Sequence record: OZ035782.1
Direction: 5' to 3' (one strand)
From: Felixounavirus LF110P2
DNA: 64,000 nt
Part shown: positions 56,246 through 60,315 of the stretch, in pieces
How the letters are laid out: the number at the start of each line of letters is the position of its first letter
Position numbering within the stretch: position 1 is the first letter of the stretch
Notes under the pieces: model-generated
Databases searched by the model: none
What the model was told of the DNA's origin: nothing
The model's input: the letters and a program-made list of their open reading frames with translations, nothing else
Program-made: the position numbers and the translations under genes

Positions 56246-56617
56246 ATGAAAAACAGAACAAACAAAGGCCAGTTTAAAAAAGGCCAGTCTGGAAACCCAT
56301 CTGGAAGACCAAAAGGCTCACGTAACAAAAGTTCACTCGTAAAAGCTCAACTGACCATTGATAATTCTGCTGAGTTTGCTGCAAAGTTGTTTGAAGCGAT
56401 TGTTACAAGGGACGCTGCTAAGCTTGCAGAGTTCGGTTTGACGACTGACGATGTAAACCTGAAGTCGATGATGGAAGCTGGTAAAACTATCATGACCCAC
56501 TCAGCAGGTGAGATGAAAGCGATTGCAGCAGACACTAAGAAGACCCCTGATAATGGTGGTCAACCTCAGACAGATAACAAACCAACGTTCTCTGCTGTAG
56601 CGACTCTCAAAAAATAA
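56246..56617 (+). CDS. hypothetical protein with Gly-rich basic N-terminus
   Basis: N-terminus KGQFKKGQSGNPSGRPKGSRNK, a motif common in phage proteins; function unknown. Confidence 0.5.
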   Translation: MKNRTNKGQFKKGQSGNPSGRPKGSRNKSSLVKAQLTIDNSAEFAAKLFEAIVTRDAAKLAEFGLTTDDVNLKSMMEAGKTIMTHSAGEMKAIAADTKKTPDNGGQPQTDNKPTFSAVATLKK

Positions 56618-56699: not shown

Positions 56700-58115
56700 A
56701 TGAGCGAATTATTTAAACATGCGCACCTTCATGCAGGTCGAACTGAAAATGGTGCTGTAAACCATACTTCATCAATGTCTGCTCTTGTAGACTTTTACAA
56801 AGCTGCTGGTTCGAGCCGTAGCAATGTAGAAATCTTACCAGACCTGTTCTACAAAGCTTTGCGTGAGGATGTTGATGTTGCAGTTCGTATTTTGCTTCAC
56901 ATGCGAGATGTACGAGAAGGTATGGGTGAGCGTAAAGCCTTCAGAACTGTTTTGCTTCAAGCAATTGAAGATAAAGTTTTAGAGCCTACACAGGTTCTTC
57001 GCATTATGGATAAGATTGCAGAACTTGGTCGTTTTGATGACTTCAAAGTCTTCGTAGGTACTCGTTTCGAGACAGATGCCTTCAAACATTTAGAAGCAGC
57101 ATTACTAGACCCTGCAACAGCAGGTTTGGCAGCTAAGTGGTTACCACGAGTCAAACCACGTCATAAGCAGTTTGTAAAACGTTTCTGCAAGTTTGCCAAC
57201 TTGAGTGAGAAAGAGTACCGCACACTGTTGTCTGCACTATCTGATACAGTTGAGCAAAAAATCTCTGCTAATGAGTTTGGTAAGATTGACTACAGTAAGA
57301 TTCCTTCACTTGCTGCTGCACGTTACCAAAAACTGTTTAACCGTAAAGATGGAGAACGCTACAAAGCTTACATCGAGTCCTTATCAAAGGGTGAGACTAA
57401 GATTAATGCTGGTGCTGTTTACCCATACGATGTAATTAAATCTGTTAAGCATGGTAATGCAGATGTTGCTAATGAGCAGTGGAAAGCACTACCAAACTGG
57501 ATGGCAGAGGGTGAAAACATCTTGTGTATGTCTGATGTTTCAAGCTCAATGTCTTGGGTGAATTTTGGTTCAATTACTGCTCTTGATATTGGTGTTTCAC
57601 TTGCATTGTATGTAGCAGAACGTAATACAGGTTGCTTTAAGAATGAGTTGATGGTTTATTCAACAAACCCTCACTTCATCGAACTGAGTGGTGATTTACG
57701 AAACCGTCATCGTCAGGTGATGCGACACGTTGAATATGGCTCAACTAACTTACAAGCTGCTTTTGACCGTATTCTTGAGACAGGTAAAAGAAACAACTTG
57801 ACTCAGAAAGATATGCCAAGTAAGCTTATCATCTTCTCCGATATGGAGTTCAATCAGGTTGATGGAGCTAACGGTCGTACAAACTTTGAAGCAATTCAGA
57901 GTAAGTACAAAAAAGCTGGATACGAAATGCCACAACTGGTATTCTGGTACTTAGCAAACCGTAATGGCACTTGCGAAGTGTCTGTTAAGGATAACGGTGT
58001 AGCAATGGTATCAGGGTTCTCTCCAGCCACTTTAAAAGCTCTGCTTGGTGGTGAGAAGTTTGACCCAATCAGTGTAATGCTCAAAGCAGTAATGATTGAC
58101 CGTTATATCTGGTAA
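56700..58115 (+). CDS. vWA-domain protein (MIDAS motif); possible Ro60/TROVE-like protein
   Basis: C-terminal vWA signature: DVSSSMSW (DxSxS), GSTNLQAAFDRIL, IIFSDMEF; N-terminal 270 aa unassigned; Ro60-like call is inference from domain order and the adjacent tRNA-like RNAs. Confidence 0.5.
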   Translation: MSELFKHAHLHAGRTENGAVNHTSSMSALVDFYKAAGSSRSNVEILPDLFYKALREDVDVAVRILLHMRDVREGMGERKAFRTVLLQAIEDKVLEPTQVLRIMDKIAELGRFDDFKVFVGTRFETDAFKHLEAALLDPATAGLAAKWLPRVKPRHKQFVKRFCKFANLSEKEYRTLLSALSDTVEQKISANEFGKIDYSKIPSLAAARYQKLFNRKDGERYKAYIESLSKGETKINAGAVYPYDVIKSVKHGNADVANEQWKALPNWMAEGENILCMSDVSSSMSWVNFGSITALDIGVSLALYVAERNTGCFKNELMVYSTNPHFIELSGDLRNRHRQVMRHVEYGSTNLQAAFDRILETGKRNNLTQKDMPSKLIIFSDMEFNQVDGANGRTNFEAIQSKYKKAGYEMPQLVFWYLANRNGTCEVSVKDNGVAMVSGFSPATLKALLGGEKFDPISVMLKAVMIDRYIW

Positions 58116-58130
58116 AAAGTTTTAAAAAGG

Positions 58131-58165
58131 GTATTGACAATGTGTTTAATACCCTTTAATATGTT
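58131..58165 (+). promoter_or_regulatory. candidate sigma70 promoter upstream of the tRNA array
   Basis: TTGACA (58134-58139), 17-nt spacer, TAATAT; -35 sits inside a GGGTATT..AATACCC hairpin. Confidence 0.45.
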
Positions 58166-58280
58166 CTACATAGAAGCGAAATGAGAGCTTTTCTAAGATA
58201 CTGAAAAATATTTTAAAAAAGTTCTTGACAACCACTAAAAAATAATGTTAAAGTGGTTACATAGAGTTTGAAAAGTTTAT

Positions 58281-58357
58281 CTCTGTTTAGCTCAGCTTGG
58301 TAGAGCGTTCCGTTTGGGGCGGTAAGGCCGGAGGTTCAAGTCCTCCAACAGAGACCA
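58281..58357 (+). tRNA. tRNA-Pro (anticodon UGG)
   Basis: Cloverleaf by eye: acceptor CTCTGTT/AACAGAG, D-arm GCTC..GAGC, loop TTTGGGG, T-arm GGAGGTTCAAGTCCTCC, CCA encoded; one mismatch in anticodon stem. Confidence 0.6.
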
Positions 58358-58364
58358 AATTAAT

Positions 58365-58442
58365 GTTCCAGTAGACAAAATGGTATAGTCATCACTCTTT
58401 CAAAGTGGATATTTGAGGGTTCAAATCCCTTCTGGAACGCCA
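58365..58442 (+). tRNA. tRNA-Glu (anticodon UUC)
   Basis: Acceptor GTTCCAG/CTGGAAC, loop CTTTCAA, T-loop GGTTCAAATCC, CCA encoded. Confidence 0.6.
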
Positions 58443-58448
58443 GTTTTG

Positions 58449-58522
58449 ACAGAAGACCAATTACAGCAAACTTAATCTTATTCATCTGAAGGTAAATCGG
58501 ACAAAGAAGAGATTTGGTCTGG
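58449..58522 (+). ncRNA. conserved stem-closed element, copy A (candidate small RNA)
   Basis: ACAGAAGACCAATTACAGCAAA...TTGGTCTGG; 7-bp closing stem AGACCAA/TTGGTCT. Confidence 0.4.
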
Positions 58523-58533
58523 TCATTAAGAAT

Positions 58534-58610
58534 TGCGGGTATAGAGAAAGGGCGTCTCACATGTCTCATTAGCATGGTATCGGCAGGTTCGACTCCTGCA
58601 CCCGCCTCCA
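58534..58610 (+). tRNA. tRNA with CAU anticodon (Met/fMet/Ile2 unresolved)
   Basis: T-arm GCAGGTTCGACTCCTGC, 3' acceptor ACCCGCC + T + CCA; position 1:72 unpaired (U:C); loop CTCATTA. Confidence 0.5.
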
Positions 58611-58615
58611 AATTT

Positions 58616-58680
58616 ACAGAAGACCGTTTACAGCAATATTTATTAAATTTTTAGCGGAAAAATTGAAAGATACGGTCTGG
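58616..58680 (+). ncRNA. conserved stem-closed element, copy B
   Basis: ACAGAAGACCGTTTACAGCAA...ACGGTCTGG; closing stem AGACCGT/ACGGTCT (compensatory change relative to copy A). Confidence 0.4.
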
Positions 58681-58693
58681 TAATACTAAACAT

Positions 58694-58770
58694 GGTTAGG
58701 AAGCACATAAGGTATGTGCGGTCGCCTGTTAAGCGAATGGCACAGGGTTCGAATCCCTGACTAACCGCCA
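58694..58770 (+). tRNA. tRNA-Asn (anticodon GUU)
   Basis: D-arm GCAC..GTGC, loop CTGTTAA, T-arm CAGGGTTCGAATCCCTG, CCA encoded. Confidence 0.6.
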
Positions 58771-58839
58771 AATTTAGGAGAGAAGCGATTGCTCACCGAT
58801 TTGTAAGGTGCAAGTCCTTAGCCTGAATAGAAATTAAAT

Positions 58840-58927
58840 GTGTCGTTATCCCGTAGATGGTAGCGGTGGGGACTGTAAATCCCTTGTCATTGAGACTCGG
58901 TAGGTTCGACTCCTACACGGCACACCA
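58840..58927 (+). tRNA. tRNA-Tyr (anticodon GUA), long variable arm
   Basis: Anticodon stem-loop GGGGA-CTGTAAA-TCCCT, long variable arm, T-arm GTAGGTTCGACTCCTAC, CCA encoded; 88 nt. Confidence 0.6.
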
Positions 58928-58932
58928 ATAAA

Positions 58933-59010
58933 GGTTATGTAGTTTAATTTGGTTAAAATACTCCCCTGTCACGGGAGATGATGAGGGTTCAAATCCCTTC
59001 GTAACCGCCA
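58933..59010 (+). tRNA. tRNA-Asp (anticodon GUC)
   Basis: Acceptor GGTTATG/CGTAACC, anticodon stem-loop CTCCC-CTGTCAC-GGGAG, T-loop GGTTCAAATCC, CCA. Confidence 0.65.
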
Positions 59011-59071
59011 ATTTTGAGAGGGCTATTTAGCCCCTCCCTTAAAGGGTTCTTACGAGTATCCTTTAAAGGAG

Positions 59072-59148
59072 CAGAAGACCAAATACAGCAAGAATGTATG
59101 ATATTTTCAAGCCAATTCAATTTTGAAAAAATTTAAAACTTGGTCTGG
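59072..59148 (+). ncRNA. conserved stem-closed element, copy C
   Basis: GCAGAAGACCAAATACAGCAAG...TTGGTCTGG; closing stem AGACCAA/TTGGTCT. Confidence 0.4.
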
Positions 59149-59161
59149 CTCAAAAAATTTA

Positions 59162-59293
59162 CAGAAGACCGTTTACAGCAAAACTTAAACAATCTATTTC
59201 TCCGGTAAAGAAAAGGCGAAGGTTCGATTCCTTCACTCGGCAGATGTCGAGTTGGTGTAATGGTAGCACTTAAGATGATAAACAACGGTCTGG
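59162..59293 (+). ncRNA. conserved stem-closed element, copy D, enclosing a circularly permuted tRNA-like domain (YrlA/Y-RNA-like candidate)
   Basis: Closing stem AGACCGT (59166-59172)/ACGGTCT (59285-59291); inside, in order: T-arm GAAGG-TTCGATT-CCTTC (59218-59234), ACTCGGC (59235-59241), loop AGAT, GTCGAGT (59246-59252, pairs with ACTCGGC), D-arm GTGT-AATGGTA-GCAC (59255-59269). Confidence 0.45.
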
Positions 59294-59298
59294 TAATT

Positions 59299-59434
59299 AT
59301 CTTTGTAGATAAGTTATTAAGCTTACCTGTGAGTATGCGACCACAAAGGGTGAAAGGGTAAATTCTAGATTTAAACCCAAAAAGGCACATCGCTACAGAC
59401 CTTAAGCAAGTCTGGGTAGCTTATCTACAAAGAT
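59299..59434 (+). ncRNA. structured element closed by a perfect 15-bp inverted repeat (candidate small RNA)
   Basis: ATCTTTGTAGATAAG (59299-59313) pairs with CTTATCTACAAAGAT (59420-59434); encloses 106 nt with internal hairpins. Confidence 0.35.
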
Positions 59435-59442
59435 AATTTAAT

Positions 59443-59518
59443 GGAAGTGTAGCAGAATGGTGATGCGGCAGACTTTTAATCTGACAGGCGATGGGTTCGA
59501 ATCCCTCCACTTCTACCA
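59443..59518 (+). tRNA. tRNA-Lys (anticodon UUU)
   Basis: Acceptor GGAAGTG/CACTTCT, loop CTTTTAA, T-loop GGTTCGAATCC, CCA encoded. Confidence 0.6.
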
Positions 59519-59692: not shown

Positions 59693-59721
59693 TTGACACT
59701 GAGATGTGACTACTTTATAGT
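59693..59721 (+). promoter_or_regulatory. candidate internal sigma70 promoter within the tRNA array
   Basis: TTGACA (59693-59698), 17-nt spacer, TATAGT (59716-59721). Confidence 0.5.
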
Positions 59722-60014
59722 AACTAAAATACTTCATAATATGTATAATTCAAACACCAATACATGAGCGTTAGACGTAACACAATGTGGGGAAATTTGT
59801 TGTACATATTCTGAATAGTTTTCGTTGCGTAGCGTCTATTTTGCAAATTTAAAATAAATGCAAACGACAATGTTTTTCTGGCAGTAGCTTGATAGGCTAA
59901 ACACCAGTGAGGTCTTCCAATCCCTCATCAAAGAATTTGGCGTACTCGCCCACGGTATGATTAATAAGGTGGGCATCTTTAAGGGCTTTCTAAGAGAGTC
60001 TTTAAAGATTAATG

Positions 60015-60091: not shown

Positions 60092-60232
60092 TTAGTTAGC
60101 AGATTACTTAGACGACCTAAGCGGGTCTTCCTGTAGGGAGGTTGTCTGTATCTCATGTTTTCCAGAACATGTAAATAATCTGAGAAGGGGCTTTACAGTG
60201 TTGAGATAATACGGTAAGCTTCGAATTGTAGT

Positions 60233-60315
60233 GTGGGACGATGTTAAGACTCTAAGGCATGAGCAACGGCCTCCAAAACCGTTTCAAAGGGGTTCAACTC
60301 CTCCGTCCCATGCCA
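60233..60315 (+). tRNA. tRNA-like gene, Trp-type anticodon CCA, non-canonical (7 extra nt between acceptor and D-arm)
   Basis: 3' part canonical (loop CTCCAAA, 5-nt variable, T-loop TTCAACT, acceptor GTCCCAT+G+CCA), but the pairing 5' strand GTGGGAC lies 7 nt further upstream than a standard cloverleaf allows. Confidence 0.4.

Follow-up and report, generated by a model that had tools for sequence, protein, structure and literature searches.

The Y RNAs and their partner Ro60 have long been puzzling, not least as to what the tRNA-like module of the bacterial Y RNAs does. Of the described forms, YrlA is defined by variable-arm (V), T, acceptor-stem (AS) and D stem-loops placed between the two end strands, by the motif GNCGAAN0-1G near the 5′ end, and by a Ro60 gene within 4 kb on the same strand (PMC4201824). 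YrlA is bound by Rsr, and the YrlA of M. smegmatis is cleaved by RNase P (PMC4201824). In Thermus phage phiLo, Ro60 binds two adjacent Y-like RNAs and also the host polynucleotide phosphorylase (PNPase) (PMC12135203). The element studied here lies on the plus strand of Felixounavirus LF110P2 (OZ035782.1) at nt 59166-59291 of a 64-kb stretch of DNA, called the window, whose numbering is used throughout. An initial annotation, made from the sequence alone, had taken it for a YrlA-like Y RNA. Our analysis indicates that it is probably a noncoding RNA of about 126 nt, the tRNA-mimic member of four Y-RNA-like RNAs that come from the phage tRNA operon and act with a Ro60-like protein encoded at 56700-58115.

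The search of Chen et al. (2014) was restricted to genomes annotated with a TROVE protein (PMC4201824), so Felix-like phages lay outside it. For Bas63, a Felixounavirus, the PhageMaP preprint (2024) reports that gp130 structurally resembles Ro60, and that its deletion leads to smaller plaques on a host with the ppl defence gene; gp130 counters ppl. Its authors guessed that "some tRNA genes" near gp130 might be Y RNAs, and the text of the preprint identifies no RNA. By synteny, the open reading frame (ORF) 56700-58115 of the window is the orthologue of gp130 (bas63_0130). In the literature, of which our coverage is incomplete, the RNA family presented below is not described beyond that one speculative sentence.

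Structure of the element

Every helix proposed in the initial annotation is found in the sequence and reappears in the minimum-free-energy structure computed by RNAfold. These are a 7-bp closing stem whose strands pair exactly, a T arm, an acceptor-like hairpin that includes a single G-U pair and is capped by a loop of 4 nt, and a D arm (Table 1). The anticodon loop is absent, as had been claimed, and its position is held by the helix running to the RNA ends. RNAfold adds a hairpin in the position of the variable arm and a short CUUA/UAAG helix in that of the anticodon stem. The order of the elements is 5′ strand, V, T, acceptor-like hairpin, D and 3′ strand, which agrees with the V-T-AS-D order of YrlA, as the initial annotation had asserted (PMC4201824). 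Neither the V hairpin nor three sibling modules with the same stem and box had been listed in it.

Nucleotides that serve tertiary interactions in tRNA are also present, namely U8, A14, G18, G19, A21 and the T-loop UUCRA, as read from the TG before the D stem, the D loop AAUGGUA and the T loop UUCGAUU. The 15:48 Levitt pair would be a nonstandard A15:C48. The segment consisting of V and T is 72% identical to the variable arm and T arm of the phage's own tRNA-Ser (repeat D10). The element as a whole closely resembles none of the 26 tRNAs of the phage, and an origin from one of them was therefore rejected. A standard tRNA cannot be drawn here, in accord with the initial annotation. ARAGORN makes no call, and where the Rfam tRNA model (RF00005) describes a cloverleaf with an anticodon arm and free acceptor ends at >29 bits, the element yields a partial match of 22 bits at 59185-59235.

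Four modules in the tRNA array

ARAGORN predicts 26 tRNA genes in the window between 58281 and 63585, every one on the plus strand, and the element is located in a 432-nt gap between the end of tRNA-Asp (59010) and the start of tRNA-Lys (59443). A repeat search (families D4 and D7) identified four tandem modules in this array, in which the 5′ motif CAGAAGACCnnnTACAGCAA occurs in four copies, each with nnnGGTCTGG downstream. Module 1 fills the spacer between tRNA-Glu and tRNA-Met, module 2 that between tRNA-Met and tRNA-Asn, and modules 3 and 4 share the Asp-Lys gap. In all four, the closing stem of 7 bp is followed on the 5′ side by the box TACAGCAA, the family consensus being UUWCAGCAA. The tRNA-like insert is confined to the fourth module, which is the element under study; the other three enclose small hairpins according to RNAfold.

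Two promoter-like sites lie ahead of the first tRNA and are the probable start of a transcription unit for the tRNAs and Y-like RNAs (58134-58254); the case for the sites at 58134 and 58225 is one of position, the region-wide count of such matches being not above that of shuffles. These sites and the flanking tRNAs make processing of the RNAs plausible. Since the modules fill tRNA spacers, ordinary tRNA trimming would release them.

Conservation in close relatives

The region 58100-59450 is 97-99% identical to Felix O1 and to many related phages of E. coli and Salmonella. The element occurs in 252 phage records, in 245 of them at a coverage of at least 80%, and is almost never annotated. The order of DUF5681 gene, DUF2828 gene, tRNAs and element is kept in Mooglevirus and Suspvirus, and no relative carries an ordinary tRNA at the position of the element. 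The T and D arms are invariant in close relatives, and within the Ounavirinae the acceptor-like stem has been rebuilt by compensatory changes (Table 1). The G-U pairs of the helices read on the plus strand.

Some records label the element tRNA-Thr or tRNA-OTHER. An 85-aa ORF on the minus strand (59133-59390; also L095, 3230-3504) overlaps modules 3-4 and the structure downstream, and several records list ORFs equivalent to it as hypothetical proteins (bas63_0137, bas63_0138). Both the minus-strand ORFs and the tRNA labels over these RNA genes are probably annotation artefacts.

Relatives in distant phages

For a wider comparison, 80 viral contigs with relatives of the 56700-58115 protein were fetched, 75 of them at 39-48% protein identity. 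The exact 5′ motif was confined to Ounavirinae in these loci. A descriptor consisting of a T arm, a hairpin and a D arm gave 26 matches in 85 loci compared with one in shuffled sequence, and several of these, none of them called a tRNA, lay close to the gene on its strand. The flanks of the gene-near matches form a closing stem of differing sequence, the 5′ strand of which is followed by UU[UAG]C[AC]GCA[AGU]. A strict descriptor for stem and box produced 94 same-strand matches, 19 on the opposite strand and 13 in shuffles, with 47 of the 75 loci having one within 1.5 kb of the gene. A loose version was dropped for its high background (336 matches versus 119 in shuffles).

Two covariance models were then used. 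R1 was built from five Ounavirinae sequences with four helices specified by hand, its matches being realigned by Infernal, and R2 was built from the R1 matches. MAFFT alignments of distant members (A3, A4) misaligned the 3′ strand and the AS/D region and were kept out of the models. R1 found 41 matches at E ≤ 1 in the window and the 75 distant loci, all of full length and all on the gene strand, the best in unrelated phage contigs at 62 bits with an E of 1e-10. The window copy, which is itself in the seed, has E values of 2.7e-27 and 1.6e-15 by the covariance models. The structure is conserved and covaries: in the R1 alignment of 41 sequences 97% of the pair cells are standard, and both partners have changed in 21 of the 23 pairs. 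None of 500 shuffles reached the observed values, and sliding the partners by 1-3 columns left about 42% paired.

With R2, 81 matches were obtained at E ≤ 0.1, and in the 64-kb window only the four modules were found. The distant loci contributed 68 matches in 45 of the 75 loci, of which 51 lie within 500 nt of the gene. Each of the 81 shares the strand of its gene, with a median separation of 170 nt from it in the distant loci. The RNAs are thus strictly linked to the gene family in both strand and position, a genomic linkage suggesting that they may associate physically with the Ro60-type protein. Neither the strand bias nor the clustering in position depends on model fitting. A high-scoring copy bearing the tRNA-like insert is present in 18 loci. 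R2 also scores strongly beside the gene in annotated phages that are remote from Felix O1, such as Porthos, phi1_175008 and Archie (Table 1). In many contigs the module begins 27-35 nt past the stop codon of the gene, and Mycobacterium phage Archie, which has no tRNA genes within 4 kb of them, carries three modules after the gene.

Over the 81 R2 matches, the box columns read U (78/80), W, C (77/77), A (68/78), G (78/78), C (77/78), A (79/79) and A (75/79). The second pair of the closing stem is G-C in all 41 R1 sequences and in almost all of the 81 R2 matches. The constant part of the family is a 7-bp stem with the base A-U, G-C, R-Y, followed by UUWCAGCAA as a single-stranded 5′ box.

The content between the ends varies. 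T and D arms without an acceptor hairpin are found in two copies (L019, 1532; L034, 4790), and besides the T-AS-D form there are two further recurrent insert types and many short forms with a hairpin only. This points to interchangeable effector modules on a constant scaffold that presumably binds protein. Modules in which other recurrent inserts replace the tRNA-like domain are located at L011 4276-4370, L012 3133-3232, L016 149-280, L020 1265-1373, L030 4734-4828, L065 4766-4866 and L081 4324-4424; one class contains CCUUUCUGGAGGGGAAAGCAAAAACUCGCC and another GGUGAGUUUCGAUUUCUCACC.

In Moogle and in several distant copies (L054 at 6563, L077 at 6843 and 9527, and L045), the loop of the acceptor hairpin holds N-CCA plus 3-5 nt. 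Such a loop has the sequence expected where one copy of a tRNA gene meets a second, tandem copy of it, which suggests how the permuted domain originated. By analogy with the report for M. smegmatis YrlA, members with this loop may be open to processing by RNase P or the CCA enzyme. The window copy has lost N-CCA, its acceptor loop being AGAU.

The Ro60-like protein

The element lies 1.05 kb downstream of the gene 56700-58115 on the same strand. Pfam assigns DUF7788 (1.7e-43) and DUF2828 (1.5e-29) to its product, and the protein belongs to PHROG 850, 'RNA-binding protein'; NCBIfam has no family for it. Neither TROVE (PF05731) nor vWA_Ro60 (PF25045) is matched in Pfam, whereas a canonical phage Ro60 used as control matches both. 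The initial annotation had named an Rsr-type partner. By sequence the protein is not a TROVE/Rsr orthologue, but it is Ro60-like in its predicted fold.

An AlphaFold2 (AF2) model from a 24-member alignment has a predicted local distance difference test score (pLDDT) of 89 and a predicted template-modelling (pTM) score of 0.89. It consists of a HEAT-repeat ring and a C-terminal vWA domain with a MIDAS motif (metal ion-dependent adhesion site), as judged from the model and from Foldseek. The top 12 Foldseek matches in the PDB are all Ro60/TROVE structures over the full length, with E from 1e-8 to 3e-5 and template-modelling (TM) scores up to 0.62. The best is the Ro60 of Thermus phage phiLo (PDB 9kop, E 1.3e-8); further ones are Xenopus Ro60 (2i91, TM 0.62), human Ro60 (9nfa), Deinococcus Rsr (2nvo) and the Ro60 structure 1yvr. 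A wide drop in score separates the Ro60 structures from the generic vWA domains that rank below them. Comparison with four canonical phage Ro60 proteins by hhalign gave a probability of 52% (E 1.5e-4) over 237 columns, in the C-terminal half only. The MIDAS residues D279-V-S281-x-S283-M are invariant in the DUF2828 family and align with DVSGSM of canonical phage Ro60. On this modelling, the protein is a distant structural relative of Ro60 and not an orthologue.

The two families differ in distribution. By tblastn, canonical Ro60 (TROVE plus vWA_Ro60) occurs in 357 phage records, almost all from actinophages and none enterobacterial. The DUF2828 family occurs in 709, including phages of Escherichia, Salmonella, Vibrio, Aeromonas, Campylobacter, Listeria, Staphylococcus, Enterococcus, Bacillus and Mycobacterium.

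Directly before the Ro60-like gene lies a DUF5681 gene (56246-56617, plus strand, PHROG 4114), and the pairing of the two is kept in Moogle, SUSP2, ESh22, Sf13 and Bas63; the DUF5681 gene may be part of the same module. In Listeria phage LMTA-34 (L090, 3959-8019), the DUF2828 gene is 1.3 kb upstream of an RtcB-type 'tRNA splicing ligase' with a phosphohydrolase gene between them, and three box modules stand just upstream of the DUF2828 gene. The layout of DUF2828 gene and ligase is reminiscent of the Salmonella rsr-yrlBA-rtcBA RNA repair operon.

The 5′ motif and the canonical Ro60 loci

The motif GNCGAAN0-1G does not occur near the 5′ end of the element, which reads AGACCGUUUACAGCAA. A GGCGAAG at 59216-59222 lies at the V/T junction and is not conserved (Moogle GAGAGAAGG, L030 CGGGCAGGG). 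Control loci were taken around the canonical Ro60 genes of four phages. Here, too, T-AS-D elements are present on the same strand as the gene, but their 5′ motif is another one, GGGUCGGAU in Streptomyces phage Stigma. R1 scores the Stigma T-AS-D core at 27.7 bits and an upstream element of mycobacteriophage ScottMcG, at full length, at 15.3 bits, and R2 matches three T-AS-D elements of the control loci with 27-35 bits. At its gathering thresholds, Rfam 15 returns nothing but tRNA and tmRNA for the YrlA-type candidates that lie next to canonical Ro60 genes. A search of Rfam for Y RNAs, proposed in the initial annotation, returned none in the window at the gathering threshold or at E ≤ 10; because the control YrlA-type loci fail as well, the missing match says nothing about the element.

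Canonical Ro60 loci are found inside tRNA arrays in Gordonia phage Boopy (L086) and Stigma (L087). The T-AS-D elements of Stigma, three in number and each after GGGUCGGAU, are all unannotated and have no Rfam match.

Table 1. Coordinates and sequences of the features; positions refer to the window unless a phage or locus is named.
Feature	Position	Strand	Sequence, score or basis
Ro60-like protein gene	56700-58115	+	471 aa; DUF2828 and DUF7788 vWA domain; DVSSSM MIDAS motif; Pfam, AF2, Foldseek
Two sigma-70-like promoter matches	58134-58162, 58225-58254	+	Between Ro60-like gene and first tRNA; consensus scan, 10/12 each
Short module 1	58454-58520	+	Stem AGACCAA/TTGGTCT, box TTACAGCAA, small hairpin; R1 27.2 bits, R2 31.6 bits
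Short module 2	58621-58678	+	Stem AGACCGT/ACGGTCT, box TTACAGCAA; R1 33.7 bits, R2 32.4 bits
Short module 3	59076-59146	+	Stem AGACCAA/TTGGTCT, box ATACAGCAA; directly 5′ of module 4; R2 28.6 bits, E 0.058
Module 4, YrlA-like RNA with circularly permuted tRNA-like domain	59166-59291	+	R1 132.9 bits, R2 96.6 bits
Closing stem, 5′ strand	59166-59172	+	AGACCGT; helix 1, 97.9% of cells paired, 6/7 pairs with both-side changes
Conserved box, presumed protein-binding element	59173-59181	+	TTACAGCAA; column counts over 81 matches
V hairpin	59197-59213	+	TTTCT-CCGGTAA-AGAAA; position of class II tRNA variable arm
T arm	59218-59234	+	GAAGG-TTCGATT-CCTTC; helix 2, 100% paired, 4/5 pairs covarying
Acceptor-like hairpin	59235-59252	+	ACTCGGC-AGAT-GTCGAGT; 4-nt loop, no CCA; helix 3, 7/7 pairs with both-side changes
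D arm	59255-59269	+	GTGT-AATGGTA-GCAC; helix 4, 97.6% paired; U8-like TG precedes (59253-59254)
Closing stem, 3′ strand	59285-59291	+	ACGGTCT; conserved G follows
Acceptor-like stem, window			5′ ACUCGGC, 3′ GUCGAGU
Acceptor-like stem, SUSP2, ESh22, Sf13			5′ ACACGU, 3′ GCGUGU
Acceptor-like stem, Moogle			5′ ACCCUUC, 3′ GAAGGGU
R2 match, Enterococcus phage Porthos	3348-3467 in locus		Beside gene; 77 bits
R2 match, Klebsiella phage phi1_175008	5842-5958 in locus		Beside gene; 70 bits
R2 match, Mycobacterium phage Archie	5509-5630 in locus		Beside gene; 55 bits
R2 matches, Listeria phage LMTA-34 and Aeromonas phage Aeh1	Several		Weaker
N-CCA loops	L001 3055-3110; L054 6563-6618; L077 6843-6901, 9527-9582; L045 6422-6544		

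Other structures in the region

Directly 3′ of the element, at 59295-59438 on the plus strand, a long-range stem of 22-24 bp surrounds about 100 nt with several hairpins (RNAfold, -48.3 kcal/mol, z = -6.27). It has no Rfam match. Compensatory changes (TTTGTAG/CTACAAA to TTTGCAG/CTGCAAA) have preserved the long stem in Moogle, SUSP2 and Sf13, and in Bas63 the minus-strand ORF bas63_0138 overlies it. This is probably a further unannotated structured RNA. Another two hairpins stand side by side at 59018-59072 (plus strand; -22.9 kcal/mol, z = -3.0), in the interval from tRNA-Asp to module 3.

At about 60231-60312, plus strand, there is a tRNA-like sequence with a GCCA end, a long acceptor-like stem, a T arm GGGGUUCAACUCCUC and, in the anticodon region, a loop CCUCCAAAA (CCA = Trp). 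ARAGORN does not call it, and the Rfam tRNA-Sec model gives 23 bits only. As tRNA-Trp is the sole common specificity absent among the 26 tRNAs predicted by ARAGORN, this may be an atypical tRNA-Trp, or else another tRNA mimic. The stretch 59824-60013 (plus strand), just before tRNA-Arg, matches tmRNA at 15.9 bits and permuted tmRNA at 20.3 bits, both weakly and below threshold. Upstream of it lies the region's best promoter-like site, 59693-59721 (11/12).

Discussion

A mechanism can be proposed for these RNAs. The Y-like RNAs would be co-transcribed with the tRNAs, using the promoter-like sites 58134 and 58225, and be freed by the host enzymes that trim the flanking tRNAs. The constant part, stem and box, would bind the ring-shaped Ro60-like protein encoded upstream at 56700-58115. 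The tRNA-like part could give the particle a stable tRNA fold, and that fold might engage factors that bind tRNA, such as modification enzymes, RNase P, exoribonucleases like PNPase, or defence nucleases that target tRNA. Alternatively, the tRNA-like module may protect the RNA, as has been proposed for YrlA (PMC4201824). During infection the particle might then serve to survey or repair RNA and to counter host defence. The linkage to an RtcB-type ligase in LMTA-34 and the ppl phenotype of gp130 fit such a role, and are no proof of it.

Several points weigh against this proposal. Folding energy is ordinary: the z-score is -1.49, and 14 of 200 shuffles fold as well or better in RNAfold, so that thermodynamic stability alone proves nothing and the case beyond chance comes from comparison. 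The comparison has its own limits, as covariation was counted on model-fitted alignments, and the selection of matches by a model inflates the conservation of the box. Thirty of the 75 distant loci have no R2 match at E ≤ 0.1; some of these are truncated contigs, and in such matchless loci the RNA may be truly absent or too divergent. Ro60 structures in the PDB were found neither by phmmer nor by a 24-sequence profile of the 56700-58115 protein, which returned noise only. Since the protein is a structural relative of Ro60 alone, at 11-16% identity, RNA binding in the manner of Ro60 is an extrapolation from the model. The gp130 phenotype was complemented by the gene alone (PhageMaP preprint), and a need for the RNAs is not thereby shown. 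For every member of the family, it is from the genomic setting that we infer expression, processing and binding.

The most substantial alternative would make the modules cis-acting processing or punctuation elements of the tRNA operon, which guide cuts by RNase P, RNase E or RNase Z or stabilise the precursor, with the Ro60-like protein not involved. The four window modules do lie in tRNA spacers, 8-16 nt from the tRNA ends, and tRNA-like folds are substrates of RNase P, which cuts M. smegmatis YrlA (PMC4201824). Nevertheless, the modules track the protein gene and not the tRNAs, as seen in Archie and in the many modules placed shortly after the stop codon of that gene, and a nearly invariant single-stranded box of 9 nt is unexpected for a processing hairpin. 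We consider this explanation improbable. The element could also be what is left, decayed and functionless, of a tandem pair of tRNA genes in which the 3′ half of the first has fused to the 5′ half of the second. Its place in a tRNA array and the N-CCA loops that match a tandem-copy junction agree with such a history, and a tandem tRNA gene junction is probably how the domain originated. Decay is very unlikely, however, for an element that is kept in 245 of 252 matching records with fixed T and D arms and compensatory changes in the acceptor-like stem, that is unlike all 26 phage tRNAs, and whose layout, box and closing stem recur next to genes of the DUF2828 family in phages whose hosts are Gram-negative, Firmicute or actinobacterial.

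Two further explanations deserve hardly any credence. A genuine circularly permuted or split tRNA gene, with a transcript rearranged into a working tRNA, would account for the T arm, D arm, U8, G18-G19 and 7-bp acceptor stem, and tRNA-Trp is missing among the 26 predicted tRNAs. Yet a helix runs to the RNA ends where the anticodon loop should be, the 4-nt acceptor loop of the window copy has neither CCA nor discriminator, and three sibling modules share the ends but lack the tRNA part. Moreover, no pathway by which permuted tRNAs mature is known in bacteria or phages. An element acting as DNA, be it a small mobile element bounded by terminal inverted repeats or the target of a phage DNA-binding protein, is suggested by the multiple copies with short inverted termini dispersed in intergenic spacers. 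Such an element would not be expected to show an absolute strand bias, a box on one side only, G-U pairs that work only in plus-strand RNA, stems that vary freely between copies with pairing kept, and internal tRNA-like helices that covary. A Y-like RNA acting with the Ro60-like protein is the reading we retain.

Our judgement is evenly divided on a broader proposal, that the RNAs with the UUWCAGCAA stem-box form a large undescribed class of phage Y-like RNAs. In it they would be dedicated partners of DUF2828-type Ro60-like proteins in more than 700 phages, among them Felix O1-like, KVP40-like, Campylobacter, Listeria, Staphylococcus, Enterococcus and Mycobacterium phages. Their inserts would be interchangeable (the tRNA mimic, the form with T and D only, and at least two other conserved types), and the ribonucleoprotein would neutralise a defence such as ppl or repair RNA damaged by nucleases. 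DUF2828 proteins are also present in plants and other eukaryotes. If the proposal is true, the box might identify the RNA partners of those proteins too.

For the presumed RNA partners of a second, very widespread family of Ro60-like proteins, our study supplies precise coordinates, a structure and a conserved motif that is a candidate for binding. The DUF2828 family is present in biocontrol phages of Listeria and Staphylococcus and in genetically tractable pairs of phage and host, for instance Felix O1 and Bas63 with E. coli or Salmonella. Since the orthologue gp130 has a defence phenotype, both the function of a Ro-Y RNA particle and the purpose of the tRNA mimic become testable through four small modules. 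The annotation is corrected as well, for RNAs that had been left unannotated, called 'tRNA-OTHER' or hidden under probably spurious minus-strand ORFs (bas63_0137).

Comparison with known systems

The permuted tRNA genes of the type known from the eukaryote Cyanidioschyzon merolae also have the 3′ half before the 5′ half. They keep the anticodon arm and mature into normal tRNAs via a circular intermediate, whereas the window element has no anticodon loop. tmRNA and the viral tRNA-like structures (TLS) are similar in using a T arm and an acceptor-like stem outside translation proper; the window element differs in lacking a free acceptor end and an mRNA part, and the Rfam tmRNA and TLS models do not match it.

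The working functional model is the Yrn1/Rsr/PNPase complex (RYPER) of Deinococcus radiodurans, in which the Y RNA tethers the Ro ring to the exoribonuclease (PMC4201824). Yrn1 has a T-arm-like element (PMC4201824), but its tRNA-like part is unlike that of the window RNA in orientation and content. Ro60 of phiLo with Yrl1 and Yrl2 offers another parallel, a phage protein of the Ro60 fold with at least two adjacent small RNAs of stem-bulge-stem form (PMC12135203). The phiLo RNAs, which are bound, carry a CGAA motif, the term tRNA-like does not appear in the text of that paper, and the phiLo protein is recognisably TROVE (PMC12135203).

The closest likeness in element order is to YrlA of Salmonella Typhimurium, M. 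smegmatis and mycobacteriophage ET08. In both, a stem that joins the ends replaces the anticodon arm, the RNA is encoded near a gene for a protein of the Ro60 fold on the same strand, and there are shorter siblings without the tRNA part, as YrlB is found beside YrlA. Differences are seen in the 5′ element, which in the window family is UUWCAGCAA after the 7-bp stem in place of GNCGAAN0-1G, in the closing helix, which in the window family is conserved as a helix on both strands, and in the partner, which is DUF2828/DUF7788 and not TROVE/vWA_Ro60. The window RNA also lies inside the tRNA array of an enterobacterial phage, a phage group in which no canonical Ro60 was found. The assignment to YrlA made by the initial annotation thus finds support in architecture and gene context, and gives way at the 5′ motif and the partner protein. 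With its different box and a non-TROVE partner, the element is therefore not a member of YrlA proper, and belongs instead to a parallel family that has its own motif and its own divergent Ro60-like partner.

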